Virus record (IMG/VR): IMGVR_UViG_2603880148_000009
From: a virus
Lineage: Duplodnaviria > Heunggongvirae > Uroviricota > Caudoviricetes
Length of the DNA stretch: 4,776 nucleotides
Strand: one strand, 5' to 3'
The notes under the pieces were generated by a model. It did not search any database. It saw nothing but the letters and a program-made list of their open reading frames with translations, and was not told where the DNA came from. This document shows positions 1 to 4,776 of this stretch, piece by piece. Position 1 is the first letter of the stretch. Each line of letters begins with the position of its first letter. A program made the position numbers and the translations under genes.

Positions 1-64
1 GCAGTTCGCTGCATACCGGTCCGACCCCGTACTGCTCACGCAGCTTATCCAGCAGTGGCATCAT
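1..64 (-). CDS. IS3-family transposase OrfB, 5' fragment (continues beyond window)
   Basis: Mirror of 4723..4776; ATG overlaps orfA stop (ATGA) in the -1 frame, translation [18 protein letters not shown]...; typical orfA/orfB overlap of IS3 family. Confidence 0.6.
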
Positions 65-387
65 TTTTTCCAGAGGCGGTCGAACTCCGCCTTCGCAAAA
101 TAAGCGGAAGCCTGGCGAAGGATATCGTTACTGCGGCGCAGTTCACGATTTTCACGTTCCAGCTCTTTCAGACGCTGACGTTCAGCGCTGGTGAGCCCAC
201 CATCACCGCCCCCGGTATCCCGCTCATGCTGGCGAACCCAGACACGCAGAGTCTCCGGCGTACAGCCAATCTTTGGGGCAATGGAACAAATTGCCGCCCA
301 CTGTGAGTCATATTCATCCTGACTTTCCAGAACCATACGAATCGCCCGCTGACGGACTTCGGGGGAAAAACGAGTATTTTTAGTCAT
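61..387 (-). CDS. IS3-family transposase OrfA (HTH, leucine-zipper-like C-terminus), IS629-like
   Basis: 108-aa [26 protein letters not shown]...; ATG at 385-387 (complement); identical protein to 4400..4726; matches my recollection of IS629/IS1203 OrfA. Confidence 0.9.
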
Positions 388-412
388 CCTGTTTACCTCT
401 TTCTCAGGGAGT

Positions 413-853
413 TTAGTCTCCAGGATTTCCGGGGCGGTTCACTCCGGCATCTTTTTTATTGGTTTGGGGGAGTGGATTAATTACCCTCTCAAGGTGAGAT
501 TTATTGGTCCTGGAGTTTGGACTCGTGGATATAATCGTTCTTCGTGCGCACTCGGTATCATCTTCGACATACTTGGTTGTTTCCTGATTGTTACAGGAGT
601 CGTCAAGTTCTTCTGATGTAAAACCGCAAATGGGGCACGTAACGGGAATTTTGAAAAGCGTTTCTCCGGGTTCCAGAACAAAATTTTCTGCGGTCTGATT
701 TTGCTTCTCATATTTGTGCTCCGCGTCATTGTGAGAGCACATTCTTATTCTGAGTGCCTGTTTAAACTCACTGAAGCTGAGAGCTTCTTCGCCTTCGGCA
801 AGGCCTTCGAAGTATTCTTCGTAAGCCTTTTCCATGATTGTGTCGAAATCCAT
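413..853 (-). CDS. YdfB/YdfC-like prophage protein with CxxC motif; last ~9 codons and stop are encoded by IS sequence (3' end probably disrupted)
   Basis: ORF-track ORF 413..895; I prefer the ATG at 851-853 because it has an AGGTGA Shine-Dalgarno ~7 nt upstream and sits 1 nt after the ydfA stop, whereas the 895 ATG has no SD. Protein begins [17 protein letters not shown]..., contains TCPICG. Reading frame passes the IS junction at 441/442 with no stop. Confidence 0.5.
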
Positions 854-854
854 A

Positions 855-1010
855 TCACTCACCTGAGTTTCTTTCCAGCCAGCGACGGGCACCATTTTCG
901 GTTTTAAACGTTTTGCTTTTGGTATACGTCATCGCGGTGAACGTGCCGTCCTGATTGGGGAACACGCCACATACCAGAGATTCGCTGTTGCCAAGATCGA
1001 TAGTATCCAT
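855..1010 (-). CDS. ydfA: YdfA-like small prophage protein (51 aa)
   Basis: ATG at 1008-1010 (complement) preceded by GAGG SD; protein MDTIDLGNSESLVCGVFPNQDGTFTAMTYTKSKTFKTENGARRWLERNSGE; the 77-aa ORF-track version starts at a TTG at 1086-1088 and is less plausible. Position immediately downstream of dicA matches Qin prophage gene order (recall). Confidence 0.6.
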   Translation of the reverse strand: MDTIDLGNSESLVCGVFPNQDGTFTAMTYTKSKTFKTENGARRWLERNSGE

Positions 1011-1126
1011 GCTGACCTCATTTCCCCTTAACGCCGGGGTGGCGGAACTGTTTGCTGAGAACACCGTGCGGTGTGTTGATGTAAACAAGATTAGTCATAA
1101 CTAACATATTGGTCAAGTGATTTTGT

Positions 1127-1142
1127 ATGTTATGGCTAACAT
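1127..1142. promoter_or_regulatory. Palindrome ATGTTA-TGGC-TAACAT, candidate repressor-binding site between dicA and ydfA
   Basis: Perfect 6-bp inverted arms seen in sequence; shares GTTA...TAAC core with the two palindromes in the dicA-dicC intergenic region. Confidence 0.3.
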
Positions 1143-1151
1143 AATTGATAT

Positions 1152-1182
1152 AATAAAAGATAACTCATTGATGATGTTATCT
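1152..1182 (-). terminator. Candidate intrinsic terminator at dicA 3' end (possibly bidirectional)
   Basis: Inverted repeat AGATAAC (1158-1164) / GTTATCT (1176-1182) with 11-nt loop; T-rich runs on both sides (TTTTATTT on plus 1182-1189; AATAAAA on plus 1152-1157 = U-run on minus). Stem is AT-rich, so weak. Confidence 0.3.
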
Positions 1183-1584
1183 TTTATTTGTCCGCTGACG
1201 GGCTTTTAGTAATTCTTCAAAGAGTTTATTGAAATTTTTTACTCGAGCTCGCATTTCGGCGAGCTGGGTATCCTGTTCTGATTCTGGCAGTGCATTAAAC
1301 AGCTCAAGGAGCTCTAGTTCTTTGGGGGCTAAGGCAACCGGCTTCTCAACAGGTGGTGTTGGTTGCTTGTCTTCATCGCCAAATAGAATCCATGTTGGTG
1401 AGCATTGCAATACTTTGCTGAGGGCAAAAAGGTTCTTCCCTGTAGGTTCACTATCATCCCGTTCCCATTGTGATACAGACACATGGGAGATTTTCAGGGC
1501 TTTAGCAAGAGACCTTTGGGTGTGTTTGAGGTTTTTCCGACGATACCTAATGCGTTCGCCGATGGTTAAATTTTTTGTATCCAT
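1177..1584 (-). CDS. dicA: HTH XRE-family repressor, DicA-like (cI/C2-type prophage repressor)
   Basis: 135-aa ORF MDTKNLTIGERIRYRRKNLKHTQRSLAKALKISHVSVSQWERDDSEPTGKNLFALSKVL...; classic HTH_3 signature (Q-x-x-LA-x-x-x-x-IS-x-x-x-VS-x-WE); matches my recollection of E. coli Qin DicA almost residue for residue; divergent from a cro-like gene. Confidence 0.85.
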   Translation of the reverse strand: MDTKNLTIGERIRYRRKNLKHTQRSLAKALKISHVSVSQWERDDSEPTGKNLFALSKVLQCSPTWILFGDEDKQPTPPVEKPVALAPKELELLELFNALPESEQDTQLAEMRARVKNFNKLFEELLKARQRTNKR

Positions 1585-1586
1585 AG

Positions 1587-1600
1587 TTAGCTAATGCTAA
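1587..1600. promoter_or_regulatory. Palindrome TTAGC-TAAT-GCTAA, candidate operator adjacent to dicA start codon
   Basis: Perfect 5-bp inverted arms, 3 nt from the dicA ATG (1582-1584 complement); lies in the divergent dicA/dicC control region. Confidence 0.35.
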
Positions 1601-1604
1601 ATCG

Positions 1605-1633
1605 TATTGACTATGTTTTTGTTAACATCTATT
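1605..1633 (+). promoter_or_regulatory. Candidate sigma70 promoter for dicC (-35 TTGACT 1605-1610, 17-nt spacer, -10 TATTTT 1628-1633)
   Basis: Hexamers and spacing read directly from sequence; SD AAGGTG at 1654-1659 and ATG at 1668 follow. Confidence 0.35.
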
Positions 1634-1634
1634 T

Positions 1635-1652
1635 TGTTAGCCATGACTAACA
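1635..1652. promoter_or_regulatory. Palindrome TGTTAG-CCATGA-CTAACA, candidate operator overlapping the predicted dicC transcription start
   Basis: Perfect 6-bp inverted arms immediately downstream of the predicted -10; same GTTAG/CTAAC arms as the other two palindromes. Confidence 0.35.
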
Positions 1653-1667
1653 TCTAAGGTGTTTTAA

Positions 1668-1898
1668 ATGCTTAAAACTGACGCTCTTTTGTATTTCGGT
1701 TCAAAAACAAAACTTGCACAAGCAGCAGGTATTCGTTTGGCTTCGCTTTATAGCTGGAAAGGGGATTTAGTTCCCGAAGGTCGCGCGATGCGTCTACAGG
1801 AGGCATCTGGCGGGGAGCTTCAGTATGATCCCAAAGTTTATGACGAATATCGTAAGACGAAGCGGGCGGGGCGGTTGAACAATGAAAATCACTCCTGA
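1668..1898 (+). CDS. dicC: Cro-like regulator DicC-like
   Basis: 76-aa ORF MLKTDALLYFGSKTKLAQAAGIRLASLYSWKGD...; divergent from dicA across an 83-bp region with palindromes; matches my recollection of E. coli DicC. Confidence 0.8.
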   Translation: MLKTDALLYFGSKTKLAQAAGIRLASLYSWKGDLVPEGRAMRLQEASGGELQYDPKVYDEYRKTKRAGRLNNENHS

Positions 1899-2403
1899 AC
1901 AGGCTCGTGAGGCTCTGGATGCCTGGATATGTCGACCAGGAATGACACAGGAGCAGGCGACGATATTAATCACTGAAGCATTCTGGGCTTTGAAAGAGCG
2001 CCCGAACATCGATGTTCAGCGTGTCACATATGAAGGTGGCGCGGTTGATCAGCGAGCGCTTAGCGTTAATCGAGTGAAGATATTTGAACGCTGGAAGGCT
2101 ATCGACACCAGGGATAAGCGTGAAAAGTTCACAGCGCTAGTGCCTGCAATTATGGAGGCTATCCGGATTAGTGATTTCAGGTTGTATCGTGAAATTAGTG
2201 ACGGAAAGAGCATTACGTACATGATCGCTGGGTTAAATAAAGAATATGGCGATGTGGTGGAGTCCGGACTGCTTTTTGCAGATCCTGCCGTTGTAGATCG
2301 TGAAACTGACGAACTTATAGAAAAAGCAATTGCTTTCAAGCTTGCGTATCGACAGCAATACCAACAAAAAGCTGGATGGAATTATGAGCCTTCTTTTTGC
2401 TGA
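1882..2403 (+). CDS. YdaT-like prophage protein (putative toxic/regulatory protein downstream of cro-like gene)
   Basis: 173-aa ORF with ATG at 1882, overlapping dicC 3' end by 17 nt; the position (third gene after repressor/cro) and the general sequence character resemble YdaT-family proteins of Rac-like prophages; family assignment is from recall, not a search. Confidence 0.55.
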   Translation: MKITPEQAREALDAWICRPGMTQEQATILITEAFWALKERPNIDVQRVTYEGGAVDQRALSVNRVKIFERWKAIDTRDKREKFTALVPAIMEAIRISDFRLYREISDGKSITYMIAGLNKEYGDVVESGLLFADPAVVDRETDELIEKAIAFKLAYRQQYQQKAGWNYEPSFC

Positions 2404-3349
2404 ACGCCCACTGGTTATAAACACACAGCTTGCGATGAAGATTGGCTTAAACGAAGCCATTGTGTTGCAGCAACTGCATTACTGGTTGAGAGATACCAAT
2501 TCCGGCATGGAATGTGATGGTGTTCGCTGGATTTACAACACAACGGAACAATGGCTGGCGCAGTTCCCGTTCTGGTCAGAGTCAACGTTAAAGCGCGCGT
2601 TTGCAAGTCTGAAAACGCTGGGGCTTTTGCGTTGCGAAAAGCTCAATAAATCAAAGCGCGACATGACCAATTTCTACACGATCAACTATGGGAGCGATCT
2701 TTTAGATGGTGGCAAATTGAGCGAATCCATCAGTTCAAAATGCGTCGCTCCATCAGGTCAAAATGACATGATGGAAGAGGTCAAAATGAAACGCTCCATT
2801 GGTTCAAAACGACCCAATGTCATCGGGTCAAAATGGCCCGATGATCCTACAGAGAATACAACAGAGATTACTACAGAGAATAAAAACACTTTTCGTCCGG
2901 AAGCTTTGCAACCGGACCAGCAGACGGCTGAACAGGATTTTTTAATCCGGCACCCTGACGCAGTTGTGTTTAGTGCGAAAAAACGGCAGTGGGGTAGCAG
3001 GGAGGATTTGGCGTGTGCGCAGTGGATCTGGGGGCGGATCGTGGGTCTCTACGAACAGGCCGCCAGTGATGATGGCGAGATCATGCGACCAAAAGAGCCT
3101 AACTGGACTGCCTGGGCCAATGACGTGCGCACAATGCGGATGCTGGATGGCAGAAGCCACAGACAAATTTGCGAAATGTTTGGTCGGGTACAGCGAGATC
3201 CATTCTGGGTCAAAAACATCATGAGTCCGTCAAAGCTTCGCGAAAAATGGGATGAGCTGGTTATTCGCCTGGGGCGTTCGCCAATAAAGCGTTGTGTGAA
3301 TCATATTTCTGAACCGGATACCGAAATTCCGCCTGGTTTCAGGGGATAA
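2384..3349 (+). CDS. Phage replication initiator / replisome-organizer-like protein (N-terminal winged-helix DNA-binding domain, central linker containing the origin repeats, C-terminal domain)
   Basis: First ATG at 2384 (the ORF-track start at 2330 is a TTG that overlaps the upstream gene by 74 nt); N-terminus LVINTQLAMKIGLNEAIVLQQLHYWLR is HTH-like; the gene contains a DNA-level iteron array, as lambda O contains ori-lambda. Confidence 0.65.
   Translation: MSLLFAERPLVINTQLAMKIGLNEAIVLQQLHYWLRDTNSGMECDGVRWIYNTTEQWLAQFPFWSESTLKRAFASLKTLGLLRCEKLNKSKRDMTNFYTINYGSDLLDGGKLSESISSKCVAPSGQNDMMEEVKMKRSIGSKRPNVIGSKWPDDPTENTTEITTENKNTFRPEALQPDQQTAEQDFLIRHPDAVVFSAKKRQWGSREDLACAQWIWGRIVGLYEQAASDDGEIMRPKEPNWTAWANDVRTMRMLDGRSHRQICEMFGRVQRDPFWVKNIMSPSKLREKWDELVIRLGRSPIKRCVNHISEPDTEIPPGFRG
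2727..2835 (+). repeat. Iteron array: five direct repeats (consensus about CCATCAGGTCAAAATG) at 23-24 bp periodicity, putative replication origin inside the initiator gene
   Basis: TCAAAA cores at 2735, 2758, 2781, 2804, 2828; flanking bases also conserved (CCATCAGTTCAAAATG / CCATCAGGTCAAAATG / GAGGTCAAAATG / CCATTGGTTCAAAACG / CATCGGGTCAAAATG). Period is not a multiple of 3, so each copy is translated in a different frame, i.e. the repeat is conserved at DNA level, not protein level. Confidence 0.6.
2849..2882 (+). repeat. A-rich 12-bp tandem repeats (ACAGAGAATA / ACAGAGATTA / ACAGAGAATA) immediately downstream of iterons; candidate DNA-unwinding element of the origin
   Basis: Three copies starting at 2849, 2861, 2873, followed by AAAAAC; encodes TENTTEITTENKNT in the initiator linker. 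Confidence 0.4.
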
Positions 3350-3389
3350 GTGTTGATTTCAGGTCATGAGGTAATTTTAAGGGGGACTT

Positions 3390-3818
3390 GTGGCAAAAGT
3401 TTTTACACAAGAAGAGCGGGAAAAAATTAAAGGGCAGGTGGTGGAACTCGTGCGCCAGAGCGGTCGTGAGACGTTACGGCAACTGGAAGCCAAGACAGGT
3501 GCGACAAGATATCTGATGAGCGCTCTTGCCAGAGAGCTGGTTGCCAGTGGCGATGTATACAACTCTGGTTACGGGTTATTCCCGTCTGAACAGGCCCGTA
3601 AGGACTGGCAAAACGCCCGCAAAAAACTCTCGAGGGCAAAGGTGAAGAAACCCGCTGCGGTTGATCCAGACCTTATCTGGTCATTAGCTGACGGAGAAAT
3701 ACGTCGTTACGACAGACATCATAATATAATTTGTAGTGAGTGCCGTAAAAGCGAAGTTATGCAGCGTATATTGTCTTTTTATCAGGGAAATGTTCGATAT
3801 TTATTGAAGTATCAATAA
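3390..3818 (+). CDS. Hypothetical protein (142 aa), unknown function
   Basis: GTG start at 3390 preceded by strong SD AAGGGGG 5 nt upstream; no recognisable Walker motifs; C-terminal ~35 codons are markedly AT-rich; C-terminal HHNIICSECRK motif. Confidence 0.5.
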   Translation: MAKVFTQEEREKIKGQVVELVRQSGRETLRQLEAKTGATRYLMSALARELVASGDVYNSGYGLFPSEQARKDWQNARKKLSRAKVKKPAAVDPDLIWSLADGEIRRYDRHHNIICSECRKSEVMQRILSFYQGNVRYLLKYQ

Positions 3819-3913
3819 CCTATTTAAACATTCCTTAAACTCAGAGTAGACTGGGTTAACAATCTGTTTCAATTGCAAATTGACAATCTATAGCCAGCGC
3901 GACGGGAGTGTTC

Positions 3914-4348
3914 ATGTTTAGTCAGGTTGACATCGGTAGTTTCGGTAGTTTTACGGACCTCAGTTGGAAAAATAGCCTTAAGGATGCAGGTAACAATGTC
4001 CAGAATTTCAAGAGGCTTAACATCCTCTACGGACGGAACTACTCTGGTAAAACTACACTCTCACGAATTTTCCGCGCTTTGGAAACGGGGCGCATTCCAC
4101 ATAACTACGTGGACCCAAATTTTACTATTCGTGGTGACAAAGGTGATGTGACACAGGTAGGTCTTGCTGGTCATGGCTACGATGTTCGCGTCTACAACCG
4201 GGATTTTGTGAGCGATAACCTAAACTTCTTGGTCAATCAGACCGACGGCGAGATCAAGACGTTTGCTATCGTTGGTGAAAAGAATAAAGAAATCGAAGAT
4301 GCCATTACCGCAATTCAAACTAGGTTAGGCAGTGTTGAATCGAAGTGA
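3914..4348 (+). CDS. P-loop NTPase N-terminal fragment (Walker A GRNYSGKTT; AAA_13/ABC-ATPase-like), truncated by IS insertion; the stop codon TGA is the first three bases of the IS
   Basis: ATG at 3914 with GGGAG SD 5 nt upstream (the ORF-track GTG at 3908 overlaps the SD); Walker A at residues ~43-51; no Walker B or further ATPase motifs before the reading frame hits the IS terminus TGAACC at 4346; low GC relative to neighbours. Confidence 0.6.
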   Translation: MFSQVDIGSFGSFTDLSWKNSLKDAGNNVQNFKRLNILYGRNYSGKTTLSRIFRALETGRIPHNYVDPNFTIRGDKGDVTQVGLAGHGYDVRVYNRDFVSDNLNFLVNQTDGEIKTFAIVGEKNKEIEDAITAIQTRLGSVESK

Positions 4349-4399
4349 ACCGCCCCGGAAATCCTGGAGACTAAACTCCCTGAGAAAGAGGTAAACAGG

Positions 4400-4726
4400 A
4401 TGACTAAAAATACTCGTTTTTCCCCCGAAGTCCGTCAGCGGGCGATTCGTATGGTTCTGGAAAGTCAGGATGAATATGACTCACAGTGGGCGGCAATTTG
4501 TTCCATTGCCCCAAAGATTGGCTGTACGCCGGAGACTCTGCGTGTCTGGGTTCGCCAGCATGAGCGGGATACCGGGGGCGGTGATGGTGGGCTCACCAGC
4601 GCTGAACGTCAGCGTCTGAAAGAGCTGGAACGTGAAAATCGTGAACTGCGCCGCAGTAACGATATCCTTCGCCAGGCTTCCGCTTATTTTGCGAAGGCGG
4701 AGTTCGACCGCCTCTGGAAAAAATGA
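4400..4726 (+). CDS. IS3-family transposase OrfA, IS629-like
   Basis: 108-aa ORF identical to the protein of 61..387; run of six A immediately before the stop and orfB ATG overlapping the stop in the -1 frame. Confidence 0.9.
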
Positions 4727-4776
4727 TGCCACTGCTGGATAAGCTGCGTGAGCAGTACGGGGTCGGACCGGTATGC
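4723..4776 (+). CDS. IS3-family transposase OrfB, 5' fragment (continues beyond window)
   Basis: ATG at 4723 overlapping orfA TGA (ATGA), -1 frame relative to orfA; [18 protein letters not shown]... Confidence 0.6.

Follow-up and report, generated by a model that had tools for sequence, protein, structure and literature searches.

Here we report that the short ATPase gene near the end of a 4,776-nucleotide stretch of Caudoviricetes DNA (IMG/VR virus record IMGVR_UViG_2603880148_000009; the whole stretch is referred to below as the window) is very probably a pseudogene, namely the 5′ 432 bp of a single-gene, prophage-borne RloC-type anticodon nuclease that was severed after codon 144 by an IS629/IS1203 element. 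Both the gene family and this mode of inactivation are well known. A sequence-only reading of the same DNA, made without database searches, had proposed the remnant of a candidate anti-phage ATPase cut off by an insertion sequence (IS), and that interpretation has proved essentially right. The features of the window are collected in Table 1.

Table 1. Positions, strands and supporting evidence for features of the window.
Feature	Position	Strand	Evidence or remark
Second IS629/IS1203 left end, inverted	1..441	-	Reverse complement of 4346-4776; between dicF and ydfB
Replication initiation O-like gene	2384..3349	+	PHROG 391, 4.5e-91; RefSeq 'phage O protein family'
DUF977 / Ren-like exclusion protein gene	3390..3818	+	PHROG 142, 1.5e-45; Pfam DUF977
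Leader of truncated gene, intergenic	3819..3913	+	Carries Shine-Dalgarno GGGAG, 3904-3908
rloC′	3914..4345	+	Codons 1-144 of a 798-codon RloC-family (AAA_13 / PDC-S06) gene
TGA stop	4346..4348	+	First three bases of the IS left inverted repeat; the intact gene has GCG (Ala145)
IS629/IS1203 (IS3 family) left end	4346..4776	+	IRL TGAACCGCCCCGG...; orfA 4400-4726, frameshift pseudoknot start

The truncated gene and its intact allele

By sequence inspection, the open reading frame begins with the ATG at 3914, which follows the GGGAG of the leader at a spacing of 5 nt and thus has the good ribosome-binding site that the sequence-only reading ascribed to it; a GTG at 3908 is an alternative start that would add two residues. 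The frame comprises 144 sense codons, the last of them AAG (K144) at 4343-4345, before the TGA. The Walker A motif GRNYSGKT spans residues 40-47 (nt 4031-4054, + strand) with its lysine at K46, and both this motif and the strings NILYGRNYSGKTTLSRIF and RVYNRDFV, which had been thought reminiscent of defence-associated ATPases, are present as originally quoted. A promoter and terminator scan of positions 3700-4400 returned neither a consensus sigma-70 promoter nor a terminator on the + strand. The 144-aa product is represented in RefSeq by WP_032246507.1.

In genomes without the IS, the identical gene reaches 798 aa, which bears out the earlier claim that it had been interrupted. The intact version that was to be sought in related prophages lacking the IS was found in E. 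coli T309.Ta3 (locus L001, 9096-11492; 2397 nt / 798 aa, WP_032280029.1). The fragment is 100% identical in DNA sequence to the 5′ end of this allele, the leader is identical to the intact-gene leader in the same strain, and positions 442-4345 of the window align with L001 5624-9527 at 99.97% identity, with one mismatch in 3904.

The low GC content that had been remarked upon holds in relation to E. coli as a whole, but it is not distinctive within the prophage. The fragment has 44.4% GC and the full gene 43.2%, compared with 45.9% for the neighbouring prophage DNA (442-3818), 45.0% for the 18.5-kb locus and an E. coli average of about 51%; on these figures the gene is AT-richer than the species average, yet barely set apart from the prophage around it.

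Prophage neighbourhood

The gene is carried by a Qin-like lambdoid prophage of E. coli, which in complete genomes lies beside rspB. The gene order in L001, likewise beside rspB, is integrase-xis-exo...dicB-DicF-ydfB-ydfA-dicA-dicC-ydaT-O-like-DUF977-'AAA family ATPase'-hokD-rem-ydfU-Q. DicF occupies L001 5148-5199, and the IS-free similarity to the prophage begins at position 442 of the window, equivalent to L001 5624.

In three intact or differently damaged loci, rloC stands alone between the DUF977 gene and hokD. The sequence-only reading had envisaged partner genes beyond the IS, but these loci hold none: the 660-bp gap before hokD contains no plausible ORF, only the hok/sok leader (Rfam sok), and no restriction-modification (R-M) partner genes lie beside rloC, with hsd genes absent within 9 kb. 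RloC is usually unlinked to R-M genes, unlike PrrC (PMC2610378). In the Qin prophage of K-12, the slot between the dicC-side genes and hokD is filled by flxA, ydfV and the toxin-antitoxin pair relBE, and the place of rloC, between the O-like and DUF977 genes and hokD, therefore fits the moron or defence hotspot of lambdoid prophages that had been suggested. A survey of HEPN proteins has also found a related subgroup of the PrrC/RloC clade (APECO1_4465) in prophages (PMC3710099).

Family assignment

Profile searches placed the fragment in the AAA_13/PrrC-RloC-like family to which the sequence-only reading had pointed. The Pfam AAA_13 profile (PF13166), for which the gathering threshold is 36 bits, matched the fragment with 101.2 bits (E = 8.6e-29, profile positions 6-111 of 713) and the intact protein with 509 bits (3.3e-152, profile positions 6-712). 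Among the PADLOC models, PDLC04887 of the candidate system PDC-S06 covered the fragment with 5.5e-60 (profile positions 1-144 of 790) and the intact protein with E = 0 (1-786 of 790). The PADLOC PrrC model gave a weak match to the fragment and one of 4.6e-15 to residues 498-629 of the intact protein, which form the C-terminal ATPase lobe, and the LmuB HMMs of PADLOC matched the fragment marginally (E about 1e-3). NCBIfam yielded nothing above noise for the fragment, and no match to DnaC/IstB or another housekeeping or replication ATPase was obtained from Pfam or NCBIfam, where only sub-threshold ABC-type matches appeared; assignment to such a housekeeping family had been named at the outset as an outcome that would speak against a defence ATPase. 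JGI/IMG labels the homologs, among them one from the 90% cluster that contains the fragment itself, 'wobble nucleotide-excising tRNase' (RloC), and RefSeq names the 144-aa product and the intact protein only 'AAA family ATPase'.

An exhaustive search of cluster representatives returned 3,901 clusters at E≤1e-3 and 1,067 at E≤1e-30, and about 140 of the best 150 representatives are proteins of 760-835 aa that match from end to end. A search with the fragment as query had returned homologs of 83-249 aa, in a list that seems confined to short candidates, most of them on 1-5 kb contigs or labelled partial. We rejected the reading that the homologs are short because proteins of about 800 aa are matched end to end both with the full-length query and in the exhaustive search of representatives, so that intact homologs are not the proteins of ~150 aa that would have argued for a naturally small gene. 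The pile-up of alignment ends at residues 140-150 was likewise discarded as a truncation hotspot, as it corresponds to a drop in conservation at the boundary between head and coiled coil.

Close full-length homologs, with 76-95% identity, occur in Enterobacterales, Burkholderiales, Xanthomonas and a Geomesophilobacter, a range of taxa that points to horizontal spread. A sequence search of the PDB found no solved RloC relative, and tblastn against phage genomes found distant relatives only (about 24% identity), none of them in sequenced coliphages.

Comparison of the intact allele with RloC and related systems

As defined by Davidov and Kaufmann (PMC2610378), RloC proteins have 658-897 aa, the motifs of ABC-ATPases, a CX2C zinc hook in the middle of a helical insert and a C-proximal Arg-X3-Glu-X36-52-His triad in which Ser often precedes the His. 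The intact allele encodes 798 aa with the ATPase motifs LSEGE (542-546), LIIYIDD (569-575), SSLD (578-581) and STHN (617-620), a predicted hook C293-A-F-C296 within a helical insert, and R700-x3-E704-x43-S747-H748; from the fragment in the window the hook, the triad and everything else past residue 144 are missing. In an alignment of the intact protein with 139 full-length representatives (32-72% identity), K46, C293, C296, S543/G545/E546, D574/D575, D581, H619, R700 and S747 are invariant in all 140 sequences, as are G40, N42 and G45 of Walker A, and conservation of E704 and H748 is 90% or more. K46 is the counterpart of Lys44 in the RloC of G. kaustophilus (PMC3458546), and residues K44, D572, R692, E696 and H737 of that enzyme lie within 2-11 positions of their equivalents in the intact allele.

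An AlphaFold2 (AF2) model of the intact protein built on this alignment (pLDDT 90.6) comprises a beta-rich N-lobe (residues 1-~140), a second half of the head (515-657) and an all-alpha C-domain (660-790), with long helices at 146-184, where the coiled coil starts, 314-386 and 401-492 that flank the CxxC loop. The best matches of the model in the PDB are the heads of Rad50, SMC and Lamassu LmuB, a predicted likeness that corresponds to the 'Rad50-like' character described for RloC. On the grounds of motif definitions, residue positions and database names we assign the intact allele to RloC. It shares with RloC its size, the ABC-ATPase motifs, the coiled-coil CxxC insert, an Arg-x3-Glu...Ser-His arrangement with near-matching numbering and a location away from R-M loci; it differs in sitting in a slot of a Qin-like lambdoid prophage next to hokD and in being placed in the family by sequence criteria, while the window departs from RloC in holding codons 1-144 alone, without zinc hook, Walker B or nuclease.

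A rather improbable alternative is that the intact gene encodes an AAA_13/PDC-S06 defence ATPase with the architecture of RloC and some other action, for example the cutting of mRNA or rRNA or a response to a trigger other than DNA breaks, in which case the feature in the window would all the same be the IS-truncated remnant of that gene. Its basis is that the RloC definition was applied to the sequence only, that PADLOC keeps the uncharacterised candidate label 'PDC-S06' and RefSeq just 'AAA family ATPase', and that the substrate varies among HEPN RNases (PMC3710099). However, every motif of the published RloC definition is there and conserved, the catalytic and ATPase residues lie 2-11 positions from those of the tested G. 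kaustophilus enzyme, and the IMG product name is that of RloC.

[quoted passage not shown] PDC-S06 is, like the present gene, a single-gene system and is the best PADLOC model for both the fragment and the intact protein, but it is a computational candidate label only, and by the criteria applied here the subgroup corresponds to RloC. Rad50/SbcC and SMC-like defence ATPases such as Lamassu LmuB resemble the AF2 model in head fold and coiled coil, and share the CxxC zinc hook of the Rad50 type, but have no HEPN RNase fused to the C terminus and act together with nuclease partners that are separate proteins; the present locus has no such partners.

The 144-aa remnant

Judged from the model of the intact protein, the fragment is only the N-terminal Walker A lobe of the ABC-ATPase head, and it ends two residues ahead of the first coiled-coil helix. 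The Q-loop-to-signature region, Walker B, D-loop, His switch, zinc hook and nuclease are all missing from it. Having lost these ATPase motifs as well as the nuclease, the remnant would be expected neither to hydrolyse ATP as an ABC dimer nor to cut RNA, and it is very probably inactive.

It is very unlikely that the 144-aa product has been retained for a function of its own, whether as a stand-alone P-loop protein or as a decoy or dominant-negative factor against RloC-type nucleases. The ORF does keep its ribosome-binding site and a clean end, and its product has a RefSeq record; moreover, Rouxiella silvae and an Oceanospirillales MAG encode stand-alone N-terminal fragments (142-189 aa) that are followed directly by unrelated genes. 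However, the DNA of the remnant differs nowhere from that of the intact allele (100% identity) and thus gives no sign of independent evolution, and the end point is set by the IS, while the fragments of other taxa stop at scattered residues from 83 to 233. The product also amounts to half of a split ABC head without signature motif and Walker B, and the list of short proteins reflects contig ends, pseudogenes and search bias, with full-length searches leading back to proteins of about 800 aa.

The junction with IS629/IS1203

Likeness to the intact allele breaks off exactly between 4345 and 4346. The intact DNA reads ...GAATCGAAG followed by GCGGGTCTCC, and the window reads ...GAATCGAAG followed by TGAACCGCCCCGG. 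From this point to the end of the window (4346-4776) the sequence agrees at 431/431 bases with an IS1203/IS629 left end from E. coli O157:H7, in a copy that is 1310 bp long and annotated in RefSeq as 'IS3-like element IS1203 family transposase', and the TGA therefore comes from the IS terminus, as the sequence-only reading had deduced. IS629/IS1203 elements are marked by their terminal inverted repeat (TGAACCGCCCCGG...), an orfA/orfB pair with programmed frameshift and a length of about 1310 bp, and the IS end in the window conforms to this family. Both copies in the window carry orfA, which matches HTH_Tnp_1, and the start of the pseudoknot (Rfam ALIL, 4681-4776 in the copy that interrupts the gene), and the rve domain of orfB is seen in a longer contig (L004). 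IS629 is a 1310-bp IS3-family element known to cause gene inactivation and deletions in EHEC (PMC9943667), and among cases of gene inactivation by IS629/IS1203 in E. coli the present one shows nothing unusual.

A megablast search of positions 3819-4348 against 5,426 complete E. coli genomes gave matches in 18 genomes, and in 16 of these the match ends at position 4345 (query 1-527), with 99.8-100% identity in 14 and 92.6% in two; in the remaining two it ends at 4319. The junction is absent from all complete E. coli genomes searched. It does recur in GCA_000705005.1 (JNSB01000129.1), in Logan SRR1186650 and in two ENA metagenome contigs; the contigs concerned (L004, L005, L006 and L007) cross it by 25 to >1200 nt of IS, and the window is identical to the JNSB01000129.1 contig over 4714 nt. 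Because it is identical in four independent assemblies, we do not regard the junction as an assembly artefact. That it is nevertheless a mis-assembly, a chimeric contig end within a repeat with the real gene intact, has next to no probability: the same repeat does lie, inverted, at both ends of the window, as is typical of short-read contigs, but contigs from four independent data sets span the junction and the breakpoint is the exact IS terminus TGAACC.

In some other genomes BLAST extended the alignment beyond the IS end by 12-34 nt, and these extensions were considered as a possible target-site motif; on inspection they showed only chance-level similarity.

Fate of the 3′ part

Target duplications are unreadable since the window shows the left ends alone of two inverted copies, both of them facing inward. 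Recombination between these inverted copies could invert the 3.9-kb segment and leave the window unaltered, and as such an inversion would be invisible, the window cannot tell whether the remainder of the gene adjoins the IS. If the insertion were a simple one, the right side of the IS would read GGGGCGGTTCA, then a duplicate of 3-4 bp (AAG/GAAG), then GCGGGTCTCC. The right inverted repeat followed by 0-6 nt and codon 145 onward had no match in the JGI metagenome contigs scanned, and the longest of the contigs that contain the junction, L004, breaks off 19 nt before the right end of the IS if the element is taken to span 1310 bp from there. A C-terminal product of 623 aa (P0218) was considered as the missing half and rejected: its contigs begin at codon 176, not 145, and thus represent another break.

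Distribution and decay of the gene

The gene is rare, being present in 19 of 5,426 complete E. coli genomes (0.35%), on the chromosome every time. Fifteen of the 19 copies look intact and four are damaged; ECCHD184 has an IS3-family insertion near codon 329, STEC1589 and STEC1590 have a common deletion of about 400 bp, and the copy of strain A23 is without its first 706 nt. The disruption in about one fifth of carriers agrees with the idea that a self-toxic tRNase imposes a fitness cost. Among draft genomes, 13 contigs start at codon 176, and one allele (P0042) diverges past residue 83. Beyond the IS insertion in the window and the 1-nt deletion described next, rloC has at least four independent lesions.

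Other E. coli isolates, known from draft genomes (SRR1186707, JNMX01), have no IS in the gene but a 1-nt deletion at codon 144 (GAATCGAAGGCG to GAATCGAGGCG), 1-2 nt from the insertion point in the window, together with new IS629 copies 0.8 kb upstream and 3 kb downstream. The deletion may be the footprint of an imprecise excision of IS629 accompanied by local hopping; excision of IS629 promoted by IEE, with microhomology-mediated end joining, has been documented (PMC9943667). No SNP common to the window and the frameshift allele, which would link the two lineages, was found.

The isolates with the 1-nt deletion appear to come from the same sequencing series as the carrier of the IS allele (SRR1186650, JNSB01), having adjacent run and assembly accession numbers.

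Discussion

For RloC of G. kaustophilus and A. baylyi, excision of the wobble nucleotide and activation as a DNA-dependent ATPase or by DNA breaks have been established (PMC2610378, PMC3458546, PMC3874168). By analogy with these enzymes, the intact allele would have a Rad50-like ABC-ATPase head interrupted by a coiled coil that bears a CxxC zinc hook at its tip, and this head would sense DNA ends or breaks and hydrolyse ATP. The zinc-hook/coiled-coil ATPase may thus serve as an internal switch that is activated by DNA and ATP hydrolysis and turns on the C-terminal HEPN-type RNase (R700, E704, H748), the HEPN assignment of the nuclease domain being that of PMC3710099. Loss of the wobble nucleotide would be a tRNA lesion hard to undo for phage tRNA-repair enzymes, and the resulting halt in translation may lead to abortive infection or growth arrest.

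An anti-phage role of the intact allele would be in keeping with this mechanism; the RloC papers cited here propose direct protection against phages without demonstrating it, and two recent surveys of defence systems list RloC as known but 'not tested'. A preprint has treated an E. coli PDC-S06 protein, antiphage according to PADLOC, as lying outside the known systems covered by DefenseFinder, and tool-level 'RloC' calls may accordingly differ.

It is also conceivable, though we consider it doubtful, that a prophage defence gene as costly and self-toxic as this one is switched on and off repeatedly, with the IS629 insertion as one of its states and no dead end. If that were true, the excision footprint at codon 144 and the further lesions would reflect repeated selection for silencing of prophage-borne RloC.

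On a practical level, WP_032246507.1 can be named as an IS-truncated pseudogene and the intact 798-aa protein as an RloC-family anticodon nuclease, and in a census of defence systems the locus in the window should not be counted as functional. For the biology of these prophages, the Qin-like slot that extends from the replication and Ren-like genes to hokD is a place of alternative toxin-type cargo, with relBE in K-12 and rloC here.

Damage to the rloC-like gene and its prophage setting

The rloC-like gene is damaged independently in other E. coli, with a broken copy in 4 of the 19 complete genomes that carry it (Table). An allele without the IS was found in draft contigs of E. coli 3-475-03_S4_C2 (JNMX01000113.1) and Logan SRR1186707, both of which have a 1-nt deletion at codon 144 and read GAATCGAGGCG in place of GAATCGAAGGCG. 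This deletion lies 1-2 nt or less from the IS629 insertion point of the window, a proximity that would arise by coincidence with a probability of roughly 5/2397. On the IS-free coordinates of the intact E. coli T309.Ta3 locus (L001), strain 3-475-03_S4_C2 instead carries an IS629 right end within the DUF977 gene (8743|8744) and another 3′ of hokD (12574|12575). The deletion could be the footprint of an imprecise excision, with re-insertion nearby.

Each end of the window itself is formed by an IS629/IS1203 copy; the two are inverted relative to each other, their left (orfA) ends pointing inward. The 3.9-kb segment between them, which carries the immunity and replication genes of the prophage, is composite-transposon-like or invertible. 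The insertion site of the left copy lies between DicF and ydfB (L001 5623|5624), and the tail of an ORF that begins as YdfB and continues into this IS end is, in this window, a by-product of the insertion; in related genomes RefSeq annotates ydfB as a pseudogene and marks it incomplete. The slot from the replication-side genes to hokD holds cargo that varies among Qin-like prophages, as seen when L001 is set against K-12 Qin.

Features of the window and of related loci
Feature	Source	Coordinates	Strand
IS629/IS1203 copies	window	1-441; 4346-4776	
160-aa ORF beginning as YdfB	window	413-895	minus
1-nt-deletion site	window; contigs of the deletion allele (L010, L011)	4343-4346; L010 1610-1620; L011 ~805	
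~400-bp deletion in rloC-like gene	STEC1589/1590 (L002)	6096-8095	
IS3-family insertion near codon 329	ECCHD184 (L003)	6769-10478	
5′ truncation at nt 707	strain A23 (match H75)		
Contig start at codon 176 of rloC-like gene	each of 13 draft contigs (L008/L009)	base 1	
Slot cargo: O-like, DUF977/Ren-like, rloC	L001	8572-12306	
Slot cargo: ydfW/ydfX remnants, flxA, ydfV, relBE toxin-antitoxin pair	K-12 Qin (L012)	5120-7637	
N-terminal RloC fragment, 189 aa, 85% identical to that of the window	Rouxiella silvae (L014)	1058-1627	
N-terminal RloC fragment, 142 aa, 64% identical to that of the window	Oceanospirillales MAG (L015)	5001-5429	

Short RloC homologs

With the 144-aa fragment as query, every protein listed by the homolog search was ≤250 aa long, and the same database contains 798-aa proteins that are 100% identical across the query. 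The word-based candidate step of the search seems to favour proteins near the query in length, and such a listing could mislead users into taking the RloC family as short. The stand-alone fragments of Rouxiella silvae and the Oceanospirillales MAG lie in long chromosomal contigs and are directly followed by unrelated genes, and therefore the 3′ part of RloC has been deleted there too. Across taxa, the end points of N-terminal fragments are scattered between residues 83 and 233; for this reason the stand-alone RloC fragments are read as debris and not as a short family.
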